This document shows positions 11,081 to 21,309 of a DNA stretch of 22,744 nucleotides, piece by piece. The notes beneath the pieces are model-generated. The model was not told the origin of the DNA, ran no database searches, and worked only from the letters and a program-made list of their open reading frames with translations. Every line of letters begins with the position of its first letter. Position 1 is the first letter of the stretch. A program made the translations under genes and the position numbers. The stretch is from positions 1 to 22,744 of the forward strand of contig JACPBX010000032.1 in NCBI GenBank assembly GCA_016180085.1, in the 5' to 3' direction. The stretch is from Candidatus Woesearchaeota archaeon. Lineage in GTDB: Archaea; Nanobdellota; Nanobdellia; Woesearchaeales; UBA10216.

Positions 11081-11172
11081 CACTGGACACGCTCGTTGCT
11101 ACGAGCTATCCAGTGGTATCGCTTTCCGATTGACCGCTTTGCCAAAGGGGTCATGCCACTGGACACCGGACA
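11081..11172. repeat. Intergenic hairpin/repeat cassette between the divergent Toprim and primase promoters
   Basis: CACTGGA/TCCAGTG stem (11081-87/11109-15) enclosing GCTCGT/ACGAGC; a TGACC...GGTCA hairpin at 11131-11153; CACTGGACACCGGACA at 11157-11172. Confidence 0.75.
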
Positions 11173-11217
11173 ACAGCGGGGAAGTTATTTAAACGGAAAA
11201 GCTGCACCCATTCCAGA

Positions 11218-12627
11218 ATGATACACCTAAGCACCTCGCTGAAGTATTACAAAAGGGAGAACGTGCAGAAGGCCCTGATTGAGCACGGCAGGGACAAGGA
11301 AGTGGCTGCCAGGTTCAATGAGCAGTTCGGCAAAAGACCTGACATACTCACATACTCCGGTGATGTTCTTGAGCTTGCCAAGCAGGGCGCAACGTCCTTC
11401 CACTGCTCTGAGGAGCTATGGACCAACCCGCTGCTGTTGCAGCCGCAGATGCAGAAAAAAGAGCTTGACAAAATGAGGAAAGGGTGGGACCTCCTTCTGG
11501 ACGTGGATACAGACTCAAAAGACAAGGAAACCGGCTTTGAATACTCAAAAATAGCCGCAGACCTGATAGTCAAAGAACTAAAACTGCACGGCATAACAAG
11601 CGTAACCACGAAGTTTAGCGGCAACAAGGGGTTCCACATAGCAGTGCCGTGGGAAGCATTCCCGAAGGAAATCAACGGGAAAGAAACAAAAGACCTGTTT
11701 CCTGAAGCACCAAGAAAGATAGCCGCATACTTGAAAGAGCGCACGATAGCAGAGCTCGGCAGGAGGATACTGCAACACGAAAAAGGAAACTACAGGGCAA
11801 TAGCTGAGAAAACCGGCAAGGATGTCAAGGAATTCGCATATGTAAAGGCTGTTAAGGGAGGAATGGAGAGCGAGAGGAAGCTGGAGTTCAACGCAGAGCC
11901 ATTCCTTGTAGTTGATACGCTGCTCATATCATCAAGGCACATGTACAGGATGCCCTACTCGCTGCATGAAAAGTCCGGTCTGGTATCATTGCCCGTAGAT
12001 GTTGGCAACATAATGGCTTTTGACAAAAAAACGGCTTTGCCCGAAAAAGCAGTTGTGGGGCAACAGCAGTTCATGCAAAGGGCAACGGCAAAAGAAGGGG
12101 AGGCACGCAGCCTTTTCATAGCAGCATTTGACTTTGGGAAAACGTTAACAGTTAAAGTCGATGAGGAAAAGAGCGGCAGCCTTAACAGGGAATACGATGA
12201 AGTGGAAGGCAAAATCCCAGAGCAATACTTCCCGCCATGCATAAAAAAGATGCTTGAAGGCGTTGAGGATGGCAGGAAAAGGGCGCTGTTCGTTTTGATT
12301 AACTTCCTAGGCAGCTGCAACTACGGCAACGAGGAAATTGAAGCAGAAATAAAGGAATGGAACTCAAGGAATAAAGAGCCGCTGCCGCAGCTATACCTGC
12401 AATCGCAGCTAAGCTACGCGAGGCAAAAAGCGGAGAAAGTCCTGCCTCCAAACTGCAGCAACGCCAGCTACTACAAGGAGCTCGGCATAGAGTGCACGGC
12501 AGAATGCGGCACGTGCAAAAACCCGGTAGCGGAGGCCAAGCAGATTTACAGGAGAGCGATGAGGGTGGCAACCGAGCTTAAGCAACCAAAAAAGAGAGGG
12601 CGAAAAAAAGAAGACAGTAACCTTTAA
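11218..12627 (+). CDS. priSL: Fused archaeo-eukaryotic primase (PriS catalytic domain plus PriL C-terminal Fe-S domain)
   Basis: WDLLLDVD, KFSGNKGFHI, SRHMYRMPYSLHEKS; C-terminal FPPCI..ML.G..DGRKR, PPNC, C..EC..CKNP. Confidence 0.88.
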   Translation: MIHLSTSLKYYKRENVQKALIEHGRDKEVAARFNEQFGKRPDILTYSGDVLELAKQGATSFHCSEELWTNPLLLQPQMQKKELDKMRKGWDLLLDVDTDSKDKETGFEYSKIAADLIVKELKLHGITSVTTKFSGNKGFHIAVPWEAFPKEINGKETKDLFPEAPRKIAAYLKERTIAELGRRILQHEKGNYRAIAEKTGKDVKEFAYVKAVKGGMESERKLEFNAEPFLVVDTLLISSRHMYRMPYSLHEKSGLVSLPVDVGNIMAFDKKTALPEKAVVGQQQFMQRATAKEGEARSLFIAAFDFGKTLTVKVDEEKSGSLNREYDEVEGKIPEQYFPPCIKKMLEGVEDGRKRALFVLINFLGSCNYGNEEIEAEIKEWNSRNKEPLPQLYLQSQLSYARQKAEKVLPPNCSNASYYKELGIECTAECGTCKNPVAEAKQIYRRAMRVATELKQPKKRGRKKEDSNL

Positions 12628-12630
12628 ATA
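12623..12630 (+). promoter_or_regulatory. TATA box for the rps13 operon, overlapping the primase stop codon
   Basis: TTTAAATA contains the TAA stop (12625-27); the predicted start of about 12653-56 coincides with the first stem of the leader. Confidence 0.6.
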
Positions 12631-12655
12631 CCACCCGCTAGTTTCTCCTCTATAT

Positions 12656-12731
12656 TCGCCCGAGTTCTGGGAAGAGCGATTGAGGGCGACAAAGCGGTTC
12701 TTCTCAGATGACCTTTTTTCTAAAAAGGTCA
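12656..12731 (+). promoter_or_regulatory. Candidate structured ribosomal-protein leader (H-type pseudoknot plus 23-nt hairpin)
   Basis: TCGCCC 12656-61 pairs with GGGCGA 12684-89; 11-bp stem 12667-77/12697-12707; hairpin 12709-12731. Confidence 0.6.
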
Positions 12732-12751
12732 ATCAAAAACTACGAATTAAA

Positions 12752-13285
12752 ATGGAACAGGAACCTCAAACACAGGAACAGTTCAAGCACATCGTAAGAA
12801 TTGCCAACACTGACATAGATGGCAACAGGAAGCTAGTTGATGCTCTCAGAAAAATAAAAGGAATTGGGTTTGCTGTTGCCAATGCAGTATGCCACCTTGC
12901 ACAGGTTGATGCAATGAAGAAAGCAGGGTACATGCTGCCGGAAGAAGTAAAAAAGGTTGATGACATAATCGCAAATGCCAGCAGCATGGTTCCCGTATGG
13001 ATGCTGAACAGGAGAAAGAACCTCGAAGACGGCATTGACAGGCACATGGTAGGGGCAGACCTGACATTTGCACAGGAAAGCGACATAAGGTTCATGAAGC
13101 AGATAAGGAGCTACAAGGGAGTGAGGCACACTATAGGCGCGCCTGTGAGAGGCCAAAGGACGAGGTCAAACTTCAGGAAGAACAAAGGAAAGGTCATGGG
13201 CGTGATAAAGAAGAAGGAGGCTGCGCAGGCAGCAGCCCCCGCCAAGGAAGAAAAGGGCAAGGGCGGAAAGGAAGCCAAAAAATAG
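12752..13285 (+). CDS. rps13: 30S ribosomal protein S13 (uS13)
   Basis: FKHIVRIANTDIDG, L..IKGIG, WMLNRRK...G.D.H, Y.G.RH..G.PVRGQRT. Start moved from 12680 to ATG 12752. Confidence 0.97.
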   Translation: MEQEPQTQEQFKHIVRIANTDIDGNRKLVDALRKIKGIGFAVANAVCHLAQVDAMKKAGYMLPEEVKKVDDIIANASSMVPVWMLNRRKNLEDGIDRHMVGADLTFAQESDIRFMKQIRSYKGVRHTIGAPVRGQRTRSNFRKNKGKVMGVIKKKEAAQAAAPAKEEKGKGGKEAKK

Positions 13286-13307
13286 ACTGAGGTAATGGCA
13301 GCGCAAA

Positions 13308-13919
13308 ATGGGAGACCCTAGAAGGTTCGGAAAAAAGTTCGCAAGACCATTCAGGCTCTGGGATGAAACCAGGATAGCTGAAGAGAAAGACCTGCTAAAA
13401 GCTTACGGCCTGAAGAATAAGAACGAAATATGGAGAACGGAGACAATGCTCAGAAGATTCAAGGGCCAGGCAAAGAACCTGATAGCGATGAAAGGCCCTC
13501 AGGCTGAGAAAGAGAAGCAGCAGCTTATTGCCAGGCTTATATCGCTCGGCCTCACAAGCCAAACGGCAGACCTTGACACTGTGCTGGGGCTCACGATAAA
13601 CAACCTGCTGGACAGGAGGCTGCAGACCCTCGTCTTCAACAAGAAACTCGCCAGGACAATAGCACAGGCAAGGCAATTCATAGTCCACGAACAAATAACA
13701 GTAAAAGGCAGGAAGACTGCTGTGCCATCCTACCTCGTGAAAAGGGATGAGGAAGATGCCATAACGTTTGCGCCAGAATCGCCGCTGGCCAGCGAAACTC
13801 ACCCTGAAAGGGTGATTAAACAGCCAGGAACACCAACCGATACTGAAGCAGCACAGGAAGCCAAGGAGATTGTGGCAAAGGAAGAAACAGAAGCAATAGC
13901 ACAAAAGGCAGGGAAATAA
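13308..13919 (+). CDS. rps4: 30S ribosomal protein S4 (uS4)
   Basis: MGDPR, YGLKNK.EIW, LDRRLQT.V....LA....QARQFIVH. Confidence 0.97.
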
Positions 13920-13920
13920 A

Positions 13921-14319
13921 ATGGAAAGGGAAAAAACACGATGGGGAGTTGCCCACATATTTTCGTCATATAATAACACAATCATACACATAACAGACGC
14001 GACAGGCACGGAAACGCTTGGGAAGGCATCGGGCGGCATGGTTGTAAAGGCGGACAGGCTTGAAGGCTCGCCAACAGCAGCAATGGCTGCAGCGAAAAGG
14101 GCGGCAGAACAGGCAATGGACAAGGGCATAACAGGCATTCATGTTAAAATAAAAGCCCCAGGAGGGCACAACGGCCCGAATACGCCGGGGCCAGGCGCGC
14201 AGGCAGCAATAAGGGCACTGTCAAGGATGGGCCTGAGGATAGGGGTAATCGAGGATGTTACACCGCTGCCTCACGACAGCTGCAGAAAGAAAGGCGGCAA
14301 ACGGGGAAGGCGGGTATAG
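13921..14319 (+). CDS. rps11: 30S ribosomal protein S11 (uS11)
   Basis: [51 protein letters not shown]. Confidence 0.98.
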
Positions 14320-14367
14320 GAAGGAAGAATACAAAACAACAGCGGCTGCTGTAAAGGTGAAAATCAA

Positions 14368-15171
14368 ATGGTTGAAATCGAGGTTGTAAAGGCGGACAAG
14401 AAGGGCAACAAGCTTGCAATACTGCTTAAGAAAACCGATGCCTCATTTGTAAACGGCGTAAGGCGGGCAATATTGGAAAACGTGCCAACAATGGCCATAG
14501 AAGATGTTGAGATAAGAAAAAACAATTCAGTGCTCTACGACGAGGTAATAGCGCACAGGCTGGGCCTTCTCCCGCTTACAACAGACATAGAATCTTACAA
14601 CCTTCCTGCAAAATGCAAGTGCAACGGCGAAGGGTGCGCAAGCTGCCAGGTCAAGCTCACGCTTGAAGCAGAAGGGCCGGGCATAGTCACAGCATCGGAA
14701 ATAAAATCAAAAGACCCCAAAATAAAGCCCGTATTCCCGGAAACACCAATAGTAAAGCTGCTCAAGGGGCAAAAGATAGAGCTTGAGGCGACAGCAATGC
14801 TGGGAACAGGAAACATGCATTCAAAATGGAACCCTGCGCACGTGTGGTATAAGCATAAGCCAGTAGTGAAGATTGGAAATGTTAAGGAGCCATACAGGGT
14901 CGTGGAGGCATGCCCGCCAGGCGTGTTTGAAATAAAGAACGGGAAACTGGCGGTGAATGAGGAAAAGCTGCTGGTGACAGACCTTGCAGGTCTTGCGGAA
15001 GAAGCGAGCAACGGAGAAGTAACATTAGAGAAATCGGACGACTTCGTCATGTTCATTGAAAGCTTCGGCCAGCTTGACTGCAAAGAGATACTTGAGCAGG
15101 CTGTAAAGGCGCTTGATGAAAACACAGAGGAGTTTGAGAAGCTGCTCAAAGAGGCAGAAACCAAGGAGTGA
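14368..15171 (+). CDS. rpoD: DNA-directed RNA polymerase subunit D (Rpo3)
   Basis: N.VRR.I...VPTMAIE.V....N.SVLYDEVIAHRLGLLPL, C.C.G.GC..C, IVKL..GQ...LEA. Confidence 0.97.
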   Translation: MVEIEVVKADKKGNKLAILLKKTDASFVNGVRRAILENVPTMAIEDVEIRKNNSVLYDEVIAHRLGLLPLTTDIESYNLPAKCKCNGEGCASCQVKLTLEAEGPGIVTASEIKSKDPKIKPVFPETPIVKLLKGQKIELEATAMLGTGNMHSKWNPAHVWYKHKPVVKIGNVKEPYRVVEACPPGVFEIKNGKLAVNEEKLLVTDLAGLAEEASNGEVTLEKSDDFVMFIESFGQLDCKEILEQAVKALDENTEEFEKLLKEAETKE

Positions 15172-15196
15172 CTGCACGCAGCATACCACTCGCATC

Positions 15197-15338
15197 GCGG
15201 GGGTGGCAGAGCCTGGTCAAATGCGCTACCTTGAGGTGACCCTTTTAAGAAAAGGGTCAATCCAAAAACGGCAAAATAAGCCGTTTGCAAAAGGGTAGTC
15301 CCTTAGTGGGTGCGCGTGTTCGAATCACGTCCCCCGCA
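15197..15338 (+). tRNA. tRNA-Leu(GAG) with a 56-nt intron at canonical position 37/38 (15237-15292)
   Basis: Acceptor GCGGGGG/CCCCCGC, discriminator A, D-loop GAGCCTGGTCAAA, anticodon stem CTACC/GGTAG, anticodon GAG at 15233-35, long variable arm, T-arm GCGTG-TTCGAAT-CACGT; CCA not encoded directly. Confidence 0.92.
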
Positions 15339-15413
15339 TACCAGCACACAGCAATAATTGCCATAAAAATTACCGAAGGGAAGGACCTCACGGCTGTTGT
15401 AAACGCTGAAGCG

Positions 15414-15674
15414 ATGAAGCTGAGAAGGCATGCAGGTCTAAGGCACAGGCCGCTCGAGAGCAGCGGAAACTACGTTGTGCTTAGAGCGGGCAGAGGTTAC
15501 GTGCTTGAAATTGTCGCGGCACAAACGCAAGAAGCTGGAGTTATGAGGCTGACAATCAACGGCACAGGAACTGGTGCAACGCCGAAGCATGTTACAGACG
15601 CCTTGCAGAAACAAGGCTACACACGATTCGCCACACAACCTGTGCAGTTAGCTGCGATGTACACACTAGGATAA
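15414..15674 (+). CDS. Hypothetical protein inserted between tRNA-Leu and rpl18e
   Basis: Open frame ends 1 nt before the rpl18e ATG. The track start (15285) lies inside the tRNA intron; the first ATG after the tRNA is 15414, and an alternative start near 15355 is possible. Confidence 0.55.
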   Translation: MKLRRHAGLRHRPLESSGNYVVLRAGRGYVLEIVAAQTQEAGVMRLTINGTGTGATPKHVTDALQKQGYTRFATQPVQLAAMYTLG

Positions 15675-15675
15675 A

Positions 15676-18588: not shown

Positions 18589-21309
18589 ATGACTGATGCC
18601 GAAGTTGACTTCAACAAGATAGCCAAAAAGTGGCAGAAGAAGTGGGCAGATTCTGGAATATTCAAAGTAAGGGAAGAACCGAAGAAAAAGAAGTTTTACT
18701 GCCTGGAGATGTTTCCCTATCCGTCAGGCGCAGGACTTCACATGGGCCACGTCCGGAATTACGCCATTGGCGATTGCCATGCCCGATACAAGAGAATGCG
18801 GGGATTTAACGTTCTTTACCCTATGGGCTATGATGCATTCGGGCTGCCGGCAGAGAATGCCGCCATCAAGAACAAGATTAACCCGAAGAAGTGGACAGAG
18901 GATAATATGGCCCTGATGAAGTCACAGCAAAAACAGCTGGGCTTGAGTTATGACTGGGACAGGGAGCTGGCAACTTGCTACCCCGAATACTACGGCTGGA
19001 ACCAGTGGATATTCCTCAAAATGCTTGAAAAAGGGCTGGCCTACAAGAAAAAGGCGTTGGCAAACTGGTGCCCAAGCTGCAAAACTGTTTTGGCGAATGA
19101 GCAGGTTGTTGACGGGGGATGCTGGAGGTGCCACAGCCCTGTTGAGCAGAAGGAGCTTGAGCAGTGGTTCCTTAAAATAACGGCATACGCAGACCAGCTC
19201 CTTACAGATCTCGACAAGCTTGGAAACTGGCCTGAAAGAGTCAAGGTAATGCAGAAGAACTGGATTGGAAAGAGCGAAGGCGTAACGACAACCTTCAAGG
19301 TAAAGGACATGGATATCAAATTCAGCGTTTTTGACTCTGTCCCGCAAACCTTCATGGCCCAGACGTTCACCGTAATAGCGCCGGAGCATCCTGCCGTAAA
19401 GGAGCTTGTCAAAGGCACCAAGCATGAAAAGCAGGTCATGGAATTCGTTGAGCGCATTAAAAGAAAAAAAGCCACTGACAAGTTCGACATTGAAAAGGAC
19501 ATGGAAGGAATTTTCACAGGGCGCTATCTCGAATACCCGCTGGCCGGAGACAGGCTTCTGCCAATTTGGGTTGCCTCCTTCGTCGTGTACGAATACGGGA
19601 GCGGAGTGGTTAACTGCAGCGCGCATGACAAGCGCGACTTTGACTTTGCCAGGAAATATGAAATTCCCCTGCATCCCGTAATGCACCCACCAGATGCAAA
19701 GGAAGCGGAAAAAGTGCGCAACCTTGAATACTGCTACTACAAGGACCCCGAAGGCATTCTGGATGAGCCTGCTAAATTCAAGGGCAGAAAGTGGGGAGAT
19801 GTGCGGGAAGACATCGTCAGGCATCTCGAAAGCACAGGCTATGGCAAGAAGGAAGTTAATTACAAACTTCGCGACTGGCTCATCTCAAGGCAGAGGTACT
19901 GGGGCACACCTATTCCGGTTGTTTACTGCAAAAAGTGCGGAATTGTGGGAGTGCCTGAAAAAGAGCTGCCGGTTATGCTTCCGGAGCCAGAGAAAGTCAA
20001 ATTTACAGGCGAAGGCAATCCTCTCGACAGCTGCGGCGAGTTTGTTAACGTAAAGTGCCCGAAGTGCAAGGCTGATGCAAGGAGAGAAACAGACACGATG
20101 GACACTTTTGTAGACAGCTCATGGTATTTCCTCCGTTATTGCAGCAACAAAGAACAGAAAATGCCGTTTGACCAAAAAGCTGCTGAATACTGGATGCCTG
20201 TGGACCAGTACATTGGAGGGATAGAGCATGCTGTGATGCACCTCCTTTATGCGAGGTTCTTTACAAAGGTGCTAAGGGATTTGAAGCTGGTTGATGCGGA
20301 TGAGCCATTCAGCAACCTCCTGTGCCAGGGAATGGTGCTGAAAGACGGGGCAGTGATGAGCAAAAGCAAGGGCAATGTCGTTGACCCGAGGACGATAATA
20401 GAAAAGTTTGGACCGGATACCGCAAGGCTGTTCATACTGTTCATGGCCATGCCTGAGAAAGAGCTCGAGTGGTCGGACAAGGGCGTGGAAGGGAGCTTCA
20501 GGCTGCTAAGGAAGATTTATTCCCTGGCAACGAAGAAGCTAAGTTACGGCAACGGGAAAGGGCTGTTATCCAAAGACAAGCAAGTTCTGAGCAAGACTCA
20601 CTCGACGATAAAGAAAACAACAGAGATGGTTGAGGAATTCCGGCTGAATGCTGCAATAGGGGGCGTGATAGAACTGGTAAACGTGCTTTCAAAATACAGC
20701 GAAGGGGAAGTCAACAAGGAAGTTTACAAAGAGGCACTGCTGAATCTGACGTTGCTTGCCGCCCCATTTGCACCACACATTGCAGAGGAACTGTGGGAGA
20801 TCCAAGGCCGCAAAGGATTTGCCTCATTGCAGAACTGGCCAGAATACGAAGAAGAGAAGATAGACAAAGAAGCGGAAGCGATGGAACAGCTTGTCCACAC
20901 AACGCTTTCGGATTTCGAGACTGTGCTGCAGCTGGCGAAGATAGAAAAACCAAAAGAAGTTGTGCTCGTTGTAGCGCCAGGCTGGAAATACGAGCTGTTC
21001 AGGATACTAAAAGAGGAGCTAAAGAAAACGAGGGACCAAAGAGCTTTGATAAACACCTGCCTTGCAGAAAAGGACATTAAGCCCCACGGCCAAGAGGTGG
21101 CAAAGATTGTGCAGGCAGTGCTGAAGGACCCAGGGAAGCTGCCACAGATGATACTTGGGAAGGAAAAAGAGCAGGAGGCCTACGCGGCAGCAAAGGAAAC
21201 AATAGAGAAAGAGTACGGCGCAAAGGTAAAGGTTGAAGATGCTGAGAAGTCAAAAGAGCAGAAGGCGAGACAGGCAATGCCCGGGAAGCCTGCGATTGTT
21301 GTGAGGTGA
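18589..21309 (+). CDS. leuS: Leucine--tRNA ligase, bacterial-type core with an archaeal-type C-terminal domain
   Basis: MFPYPSG..LHMGH (HIGH), WLISRQRYWG.PIP, YIGGIEHA..HLLY.RF, VMSKSKGN (KMSKS); C-terminal A.PGKPAIVV. Confidence 0.97.
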   Translation: MTDAEVDFNKIAKKWQKKWADSGIFKVREEPKKKKFYCLEMFPYPSGAGLHMGHVRNYAIGDCHARYKRMRGFNVLYPMGYDAFGLPAENAAIKNKINPKKWTEDNMALMKSQQKQLGLSYDWDRELATCYPEYYGWNQWIFLKMLEKGLAYKKKALANWCPSCKTVLANEQVVDGGCWRCHSPVEQKELEQWFLKITAYADQLLTDLDKLGNWPERVKVMQKNWIGKSEGVTTTFKVKDMDIKFSVFDSVPQTFMAQTFTVIAPEHPAVKELVKGTKHEKQVMEFVERIKRKKATDKFDIEKDMEGIFTGRYLEYPLAGDRLLPIWVASFVVYEYGSGVVNCSAHDKRDFDFARKYEIPLHPVMHPPDAKEAEKVRNLEYCYYKDPEGILDEPAKFKGRKWGDVREDIVRHLESTGYGKKEVNYKLRDWLISRQRYWGTPIPVVYCKKCGIVGVPEKELPVMLPEPEKVKFTGEGNPLDSCGEFVNVKCPKCKADARRETDTMDTFVDSSWYFLRYCSNKEQKMPFDQKAAEYWMPVDQYIGGIEHAVMHLLYARFFTKVLRDLKLVDADEPFSNLLCQGMVLKDGAVMSKSKGNVVDPRTIIEKFGPDTARLFILFMAMPEKELEWSDKGVEGSFRLLRKIYSLATKKLSYGNGKGLLSKDKQVLSKTHSTIKKTTEMVEEFRLNAAIGGVIELVNVLSKYSEGEVNKEVYKEALLNLTLLAAPFAPHIAEELWEIQGRKGFASLQNWPEYEEEKIDKEAEAMEQLVHTTLSDFETVLQLAKIEKPKEVVLVVAPGWKYELFRILKEELKKTRDQRALINTCLAEKDIKPHGQEVAKIVQAVLKDPGKLPQMILGKEKEQEAYAAAKETIEKEYGAKVKVEDAEKSKEQKARQAMPGKPAIVVR

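Follow-up and report, generated by a model that had tools for sequence, protein, structure and literature searches.

Short dispersed repeats that encode an intrastrand triple helix are described from bacteria as the BoxC/PIT/TMECO elements, which correspond to ITxF classes II and IV (Holder et al. 2015, PMC4666352, where both classes are defined; Hoyne et al. 2000 as cited there). Other systems of comparison are the repetitive extragenic palindromes (REP) with their REP-associated tyrosine transposases (RAYT), and the transposed bulge-helix-bulge (BHB) introns in tRNA genes of Thermoproteales, for which the mechanism of "transposition" is not known (PMC4090602). A 2026 survey of Asgard archaea tested several routes of tRNA-intron arrival and found none. 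Here we analyse a stretch of 22,744 nt (the window), one entire contig (JACPBX010000032.1) of the Candidatus Woesearchaeota assembly GCA_016180085.1, in which three similar hairpins lie dispersed, one of them at the start of a tRNA-Leu(GAG) intron. On balance we favour a reading in which these hairpins belong to a small mobile DNA repeat, non-autonomous and structure-coded, that persists at places of transcript trimming. The open question of how tRNA introns arrive in archaea becomes testable here, as a defined unit of 36 nt can be traced through intergenic sites and tRNA introns, leaders and trailers, and closely related genomes differ in which orthologous sites are occupied.

The assembly (1.0 Mb, 45 contigs, 83% complete) is labelled G000, and G002 to G008 are congeners of G000; genus-wide profile searches cover 10 genomes.

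Results

The window contains exactly three matches to TGACC-N13-GGTCA (11131-11153, 12709-12731 and 15237-15259), compared to 0.01 occurrences expected from dinucleotide shuffles, and none of 100 shuffles gives three matches. All three hairpins have 10-nt arms and a 3-nt loop, with a single G.G mismatch in copy 1 as read on the plus strand. An earlier note on this DNA had reported the hairpins with these coordinates and sequences and in the same gene context, with a Toprim-like gene and a primase gene around copy 1 and uS13 after copy 2, all of which is confirmed; the tRNA that carries copy 3 is preceded by RpoD. Its description of the family as hairpins of exactly 23 nt applies to the three window copies but not to the family, in which hairpin length is 21-29 nt and outer stems vary.

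The repeat unit as a whole measures about 36-38 nt and is directional, a GCA flank being followed by the hairpin and this by ATC and an A-rich tract that ends in C(G). The hairpin is made up of a 5-bp outer stem (TGACC/GGTCA or a variant), a pyrimidine/purine inner stem of 4-6 bp and a loop of 3-4 nt; the linker ATC then leads into a purine tail that mirrors the purine arm. Outer stems fall into the subfamilies TGACC/GGTCA, TGACC/GGTTCA, AAACC/GGTTT and CAACC/GGTTG. Copy 1 (11120-11156) lies on the minus strand, with the GCA flank at 11154-11156, the hairpin at 11131-11153 and the tail ATCGGAAAGC plus G at 11120-11130. Copies 2 (12709-12740) and 3 (15237-15269) lie on the plus strand, and their tails ATCAAAAAC (12732-12740) and ATCCAAAAAC (15260-15269) have ATC(C)AAAAAC in common. 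The tail had previously been seen as shared by copies 2 and 3, which is correct, but copy 1 carries one as well when read on the minus strand. Likewise, the mismatch of copy 1 is real; on the strand of the element it is, however, C.C, and it is conserved in a subfamily (CCTTT arm, GGAAA tail) present in 7 genomes.

A strict detector finds 37 copies in G000 and 45 in the congener G008, which was fetched whole, and none in reversed-genome controls; census numbers are those of this detector since a looser one gives 9-11 matches on reversed genomes. The exact pattern is present in 7 of 9 congeners, with no control matches. These numbers contradict the possibility, raised in the earlier note, that there are only three copies, as many as expected in shuffled sequence. 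In some copies a larger two-hairpin insert is found within the loop. These composite copies have exchanged the loop for a conserved insert of the form CCCAAGTCG..CGACTGGG followed by CCCAATCG..CGATTTGGG, and several of them adjoin tRNA genes. They were located in G000 (contig and position C29:612, C35:13467, C35:18755, C37:8835 and C5:2291) and in the tRNA-Leu trailer of G004 (L020).

The pairing of the hairpin is maintained by covariation. When 30 copies are aligned without gaps, 97.7% of the stem cells pair, and compensatory change is seen at 5 of the 10 pairs. Double-sided changes number 31 compared to 7.1 in shuffles, none of 500 shuffles being as high, which bears out the earlier description of a dispersed structured repeat. 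One-sided stem changes of the G-U type are absent from this alignment, in which the mismatches seen are C.C, C.T and A.C.

The tail follows the arm by a second rule, which we determined from 95 copies in 7 genomes, including 52 loci fetched from five congeners by tail-blind searches. When arm and tail are read in one direction, a C in the 5' arm has a G as its counterpart at the corresponding position of the tail, so that the arms TTCTT, TCTTT and CCTTT are accompanied after ATC by the tails AAGAA, AGAAA and GGAAA, respectively. This mirror rule is kept in 28 of 29 cases at the second position (k1), in 35 of 35 at the third (k2) and in 19 of 25 at the first (k0), and at least 59 of 60 T residues of the arm correspond to A in the tail. 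The combination of TTCTT with AAGAA is seen with five different outer stems, while antiparallel Watson-Crick pairing of tail to arm is not conserved in the same set. In the C.C-mismatch subfamily the tail tracks the arm that forms the purine strand on the T-rich strand (17/17). Since mirror symmetry of a purine tract beside a duplex is the code of a triple helix, we read the tail as part of the structure and the mirror repeat as the sequence code of a putative intrastrand triplex. Templated copying cannot yield a mirror repeat.

On the T-rich strand the order of tracts is Hoogsteen pyrimidine tract, pyrimidine arm and purine arm, which is the class IV layout with T.A-T and C+.G-C triads; on the A-rich strand it is pyrimidine arm, purine arm and reverse-Hoogsteen tract, which is class II. 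Tract order and mirror-rule triad code, as determined over the 95 copies, thus agree with these classes, with the qualification that the second loop measures 8 nt, 5 of them paired in the outer stem, and that 5-6 triads compare with at least 6 triads and a short second loop in the ITxF search. We favour a pyrimidine-type triplex on the T-rich strand, as suggested by the mismatch subfamily, whose tail tracks the purine arm of that strand. In most copies the A-rich strand is the one that appears in the RNA, and a purine-motif triplex cannot form in RNA (PMC4666352). The triplex code therefore probably acts in single-stranded DNA, and the lack of G-U type one-sided changes and the position of copy 1 between two promoters likewise argue for the DNA rather than the RNA level.

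Comparison of orthologous sites reveals extensive turnover. The position of copy 2 is empty in G003, G005, G006 and G008, and a copy stands elsewhere in the same leader in G005, G007 and G008. Copy 1 is without counterpart in the four congeners compared (G002, G003, G005 and G006). Conversely, G008 has a copy in both the ROK-kinase spacer and the S14/S8 spacer where G000 has none, each in a well-aligned context. Within one genus of groundwater Woesearchaeota the family has thus undergone recent multiplication and turnover, and the proposal that it is mobile is supported by copies whose presence at orthologous positions differs among species. Five of 83 copies have direct repeats of 10-20 nt, variable in length, on their flanks, compared to about 0.5 expected; four of the five lie at 5' ends of protein genes, and in three of these cases the repeat restores the start codon downstream of the module.

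Manual classification places 18 of 37 copies in G000 and 20 of 46 in G008, i.e. about 45%, in contact with tRNA genes; many of these 38 lie in leaders or trailers rather than introns, and 19 of 37 and 26 of 46 copies, respectively, are not tRNA-associated. At tRNA genes one rule applies: the hairpin is flush with the exon end and the tail is directed away from it, at 5' splice sites, at some 3' splice sites, in 5' leaders and in 3' trailers. In 37/38 introns and T-loop introns the hairpin begins at intron base 1, and in the two-copy introns of G008 a second, inverted copy stands against the 3' splice site. In trailers the element begins 0-2 nt past the discriminator base, and in leaders the hairpin finishes one base ahead of +1. 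Leader copies have a TATA box 22-24 nt upstream of the hairpin, or of the outer copy where two stand in tandem. Throughout the G000 genome the gap between the end of the TATA 8-mer and the ATG is sharply peaked at 22-23 nt, from which it follows that the mRNAs of this organism are mainly leaderless; the promoter profile of the genome further contains an A-rich B recognition element (BRE) at -36 to -33. Measured with this ruler, the TATA boxes of leader copies are placed such that transcription of these tRNA genes should start at the first hairpin base.

With regard to processing enzymes, RNase P RNA (RF00373) and Pop5 (PF01900) were found in none of the 10 genus genomes, Rpp21, Rpp29 and Rpp30 not having been searched. 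A full-length PIN_5 protein, the HARP family (PMC6380272), is present in 8 of the 10 (C9:6259-6801 in G000). A 2019 survey found HARP absent from DPANN and never without the ribonucleoprotein subunits in Archaea (PMC6380272); judged by gene content, the genus may represent a HARP-only archaeon. Given a HARP-type RNase P, the removal of leaders needs no splicing endonuclease. The latter is encoded by one EndA gene (205 amino acids, C40:45896-46156), and the alpha4 size class of EndA has been linked to disrupted tRNA genes in DPANN (PMC5829648).

The copies away from tRNA genes are intergenic, with a sense bias in tandem spacers (17:6, p = 0.035) and a preference for divergent over convergent spacers (9:1). 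A few copies lie in frame within genes of G008, one in an Ogt-like gene (C1:12334), where about 12 residues are added just ahead of the PCHR active-site motif of the methyltransferase, and one in an ApgM-like gene (C5:15140), where the loop before the TADH motif of the mutase is 7 residues longer; G000 is without module-like sequence at both sites. Copies thus persist in non-coding DNA or in RNA that is discarded, i.e. in tRNA introns, leaders and trailers, mRNA leaders and operon spacers, with a few in tolerant protein loops.

The tRNA-Leu(GAG) gene of the window (15197-15338, plus strand) consists of a 5' exon (15197-15236), an intron of 56 nt at 37/38 (15237-15292) and a 3' exon (15293-15338). 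It was called by ARAGORN with the intron option and by RF00005, and was missed by ARAGORN without introns and by the Rfam scan, in which no family reached its gathering score in the window. The gene begins 25 nt past the rpoD stop codon and is without a TATA box of its own. Copy 3 forms the opening 33 nt of the intron from intron base 1, as had been claimed, and the joined exons are identical to the intron-less gene of G004. The host of copy 3 is accordingly an intervening sequence whose removal gives a canonical tRNA, EndA being present. Over 38 nt, copy 3 is 97% identical to the start of an intron in another tRNA gene (G000 C3:26801).

The 3' half of the intron (15266-15293, plus strand) contains a helix of 15266-15272 with 15280-15286, whose first 4 nt are the end of the repeat tail. 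It is followed by the presumptive central-helix strand GCAA (15287-15290), which pairs with anticodon-loop nucleotides 32-35 (15231-15234) in three pairs and one A.G mismatch, and by the 3' bulge AA|G (15291-15293) as read from the sequence. On the 5' splice side the hairpin follows directly and the 10-nt tail is unpaired opposite; compared to the full motif (hBHBh'), in which two 3-nt bulges stand on either side of a 4-bp helix and have helices beyond them, the BHB is thus a relaxed one by the sequence and the minimum-free-energy fold.

To estimate the age of the intron we compared orthologous tRNA-Leu(GAG) genes downstream of rpoD across the family. Four sister-genus genomes are intron-free at 37/38, four further ones have a mini-intron of 12-22 nt that ends in TCAG-AA or GCAA-AA before G38, and three have an intron at another place in the gene. 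Within the genus, G004 is intron-free and the remaining congeners have an intron of 39-96 nt that opens with the module, the subfamily varying by species, and has the same 3' ending. The shortest of these, with 39 nt in G002, consists of the module and six bases. The ending (T/G)C(A/G)A-NN|G is found in all in-genus introns as well as in the sister-genus mini-introns. Because the sister genera have mini-introns at the same site with the same ending, the repeat in tRNA-Leu is younger than the splice site, the 3' bulge and the strand of the central helix. It took the place of the mini-intron loop and thereby enlarged an existing intron rather than created one. Thus, of the link between repeat and tRNA-intron evolution suggested in the earlier note, the tight association with introns stands, whereas at tRNA-Leu the intron site predates the repeat; it is possible that the repeat founded introns at other genes.

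Within its family the exact pattern is limited to this genus, and a relaxed pattern, in which the outer stem is left free, yields a single stray match across 60 other genera of the order. A view of the repeat as genus-restricted, based on the first pattern search, was nevertheless revised after a relaxed scan of 185,579 species genomes. Hereby similar modules with other outer stems, several per genome, were found in other archaeal metagenome-assembled genomes labelled Micrarchaeota, Aenigmatarchaeota, Iainarchaeum, Nanoarchaeota and Altiarchaeota, and these also occur at tRNA exon ends, D-loop positions included. The modules in other phyla are similar in pattern, which could reflect homology or convergence. 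Some matches of the scan (Methanobacterium, Clostridia) are probably unrelated palindromes, and some "Methanosarcinales" bins whose flanks are shared with this genus may be mis-binned.

As to the setting of the other two window copies, the Toprim-like gene and the PriS/PriL-type primase gene diverge from promoters on either side of copy 1, which is therefore probably outside both flanking transcripts. A 10-nt motif, CACTGGACAC, forms a direct repeat on either side of copy 1 (11081-11090 and 11157-11166). Its complement, (G)TGTCCAGTG, stands directly 5' of several other copies and occurs in tandem elsewhere, further sites of the motif being C1:23536 and C40:35170 in G000 and C2:233260 and C3:16014 in G008. 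The motif may serve in binding or belong to a second family of repeats. In G005 the primase spacer holds a different two-hairpin repeat, bounded by the same motif.

Copy 2 lies in the long 5' leader of the uS13 (rps13) operon, whose ATG at 12753 starts 12 nt further on. The operon has a canonical TATA box at 12623-12630, and a hairpin of 31 nt (12658-12688) begins about 4 nt past the predicted start. This hairpin is kept nearly base for base in every congener examined and could be a 5'-terminal leader structure, e.g. a ribosomal-protein autoregulation site or a stabiliser; the repeat copies of G005, G007 and G008 stand directly 3' of it. The region between tRNA-Leu and the next ribosomal-protein gene (15339-15675) is a variable slot, with a segment of about 330 nt common to G000 and G007, unrelated inserts bearing open reading frames in G002 and G004, and repeat copies alone in G005, G006 and G008. 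Finally, the leucyl-tRNA synthetase encoded at 18589-21309 scores 952 bits against the bacterial-type model TIGR00396, far over its cut-off, and is under the cut-off of the archaeal model, which suggests a LeuRS of bacterial type in this archaeon.

Discussion

In the reading that we favour, the repeat would spread at the DNA level as a folded single strand, either by a factor acting in trans or by template switching during replication. Its preferred places, or the only ones where it survives, would be the single-stranded loops and stem ends of heavily transcribed genes. Within introns, the hairpin would replace the intron-side helix beside the 5' splice bulge such that the endonuclease still cuts at 37|38; in leaders, it would be transcribed from its first base and then removed by protein-only RNase P.

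Several observations weigh against this reading. There is no regular target-site duplication, and 71 of 83 copies are without a flanking direct repeat of at least 7 nt. Y1 (PF01797), TnpB and RVT_1 gave no hits in G000 (83% complete), DDE transposases and integrases not having been screened, and Y1, which only 2 of the 10 genus genomes have, does not track the repeat in the genus. A search of viral contigs gave no match to the repeat. The precise abutment to exon ends and the fixed TATA spacing resemble function more than passive survival. Moreover, the triplex tracts comprise just 5-6 triads in a fold that is predicted from sequence, the first position (k0) departs from the mirror rule in the ATCC subfamily, copy 3 included, and subfamily expansions reduce the covariation to a handful of independent changes.

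With respect to the source of mobility, known classes of element were tried and rejected. A viral or plasmid donor was dismissed for want of matches on viral contigs, and a retro-element, suggested by the A-rich tail, because G000 has no RVT_1. A miniature inverted-repeat transposable element does not fit, as there is no fixed-length target-site duplication and no related autonomous element was found (TnpB, Y1 and reverse transcriptase searched in G000; DDE families not screened). RAYT systems are marked by a single-copy Y1 gene between copies of the repeat. In G005, however, the Y1 gene belongs to a unit of IS200 type that has GC-rich hairpins of its own at the ends, and the Y1 genes of G002 are without flanking repeat copies; membership of the REP/RAYT class was rejected with Y1 absent or unlinked.

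Among the alternatives, the repeat could be a working RNA-processing signal, an "exon-end cap" hairpin kept by selection that positions a nuclease (splicing endonuclease, protein-only RNase P, RNase Z or another) at tRNA ends and both splice sites. We consider this rather unlikely. The hairpin does stand against the exon end, with the tail away from it, at all four kinds of tRNA cut site; the promoters of leader copies are placed for an RNA start at hairpin base 1, and the enzymes would suit such a role, with a HARP-type PIN_5 in place of RNase P RNA or Pop5 matches and a single EndA of the alpha4 size class (PMC5829648). However, over half of the copies lie away from tRNA genes, most tRNA genes lack a leader or trailer copy, and the same tRNA works module-free, as G004 and several sister genera are intron-free and the mini-introns are free of the hairpin. 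The stem is without G-U substitutions, and in the orientation in which most copies enter RNA, their mirror tail is unable to build a triplex (PMC4666352). Neither is the geometry of leaders and trailers that of a BHB. Trimming by EndA through a true BHB was rejected on this ground, as the two bulges would come to lie opposite one another at a single end of the acceptor stem.

It is also doubtful, in our view, that the repeat is an enzyme-free "instability motif", i.e. a hairpin- or triplex-prone sequence at which replication stalls and which multiplies through template switching and repair, its link to tRNA genes being one of tolerated scars. Such a motif would account for the fact that no transposase tracks the repeat and for target duplications that are irregular, sometimes 12-38 nt, with partial inverted copies of the flanks, and bacterial triplex motifs are indeed tied to local rearrangement (PMC4666352). 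It fits poorly with the precise, recurrent boundaries of the unit, including the GCA flank and the ACG end, with the precise placement at exon ends, and with some 40 dispersed copies in subfamilies that are conserved across species. The patchy presence across distant phyla, too, suggests transfer of a defined element. As a mechanism of spread, enzyme-free template switching nevertheless stays a live alternative.

Equally, we think it improbable that the family is best understood as transcription punctuation, spreading with expression signals as a portable promoter, in which the AT-rich hairpin centre would serve as TATA box and the tail as -10 to -1, and/or as a T-run terminator. The hairpin centre matches the TATA profile of the genome, and gene starts cluster 22-34 nt from it with a mode of 26, compared to a canonical distance of about 27. 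Four copies stand at exactly 26 nt (centre to ATG), all of the (C/T)AACC type with AAG or AAC loops and at leaderless genes, and this spacing is held in orthologues despite differing spacer sequence. Five genes show a duplicated 5' coding end or start codon after insertion, and the 9:1 preference for divergent spacers points in the same direction. On the other hand, TGACC matches the A-rich BRE poorly, the TATA box is disrupted by many of the loops (GCG, GGC), for most copies no gene lies at the ruler distance, and a promoter is of no use to copies in tRNA introns or in frame. A terminator role was discarded on account of the same spacer preference and because T5 runs lie within 7 of 17 intron copies, which are thus not efficient terminators; bacterial PIT elements have neither activity (PMC4666352). 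Translational coupling through an "ATGA" stop/start overlap after the module was also considered and dropped as not significant. Within the favoured reading of a mobile repeat, some copies of the (C/T)AACC type were probably co-opted as promoters of leaderless genes.

That the hairpin is a palindromic operator of a dimeric DNA-binding regulator, as its perfect 10-3-10 palindrome and invariant outer half-sites could imply and as the earlier note had allowed, is highly improbable, since the inner half-sites vary yet stay complementary, the third tract co-varies, copies lie within tRNA introns and coding frames, and copy numbers and turnover are those of a repeat.

Returning to the mobile repeat, a more far-reaching proposal is that the module is the actual vehicle of tRNA-intron gain and growth in DPANN, where a triplex-folding single-stranded DNA element would enter exposed loop and stem-end positions of tRNA genes and would do no harm there, its own hairpin supplying the helix for the splicing endonuclease. 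We put this forward tentatively. If true, one new class of mobile element, possibly with enzyme-free transposition, would have given rise through domesticated insertions to many of the long tRNA introns of archaea. For the tRNA-Leu of the window the implication is more modest, as an older mini-intron was enlarged and no new intron founded.

Comparison with known systems

The earlier note had suggested a REP-like element, and the repeat does share with REP/RAYT systems (REPtrons) and with IS200-IS605 palindromic elements the small imperfect palindrome, the many intergenic copies, the directionality, a short conserved 5' flank and the lack of regular target duplication. Palindrome and copy number agree with what defines REPs (a palindrome of 20-40 nt, many copies, GTAG), but the flank is GCA rather than GTAG, the third, mirror tract has no REP counterpart, and there is no cognate Y1 transposase. 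The attribution is therefore not upheld: Y1/HUH is missing from G000 and unlinked in the two genus genomes that have it, and neither a GTAG-type head nor a regular target duplication is present.

The transposed BHB introns of Thermoproteales resemble the repeat in that the mechanism, while not known, is thought to operate at the DNA level (Fujishima et al. 2010, summarised in PMC4090602). They differ in that the shared unit is here just the first 33 nt or so of the intron, carries a triplex code and, at tRNA-Leu, entered a pre-existing mini-intron. Moreover, the repeat is not confined to tRNA introns, over half of its copies being outside tRNA genes.

The closest likeness in layout and triad code, sequence homology not being established, is to the bacterial BoxC/PIT/TMECO elements. 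Like these, the repeat is short, dispersed and intergenic, with a pyrimidine arm, a purine arm and a triad-code third tract on one strand and the matching pyrimidine-type motif on the complementary strand; it is likewise non-coding, without a known mobilising enzyme and linked to local genome variability. In contrast to them it is archaeal and A/T-rich instead of G/C-rich, has 5-6 triads, a conserved GCA flank and an additional mixed-sequence outer stem of 5 bp between the triplex part and the third tract, and is tied to tRNA cut sites and introns, whereas tRNA is unmentioned in PMC4666352. We found no published description that links such triplex-type motifs to archaeal tRNA genes. The repeat described here would thus extend intrastrand-triplex repeats, so far bacterial, to the archaea and place them in a biological context.

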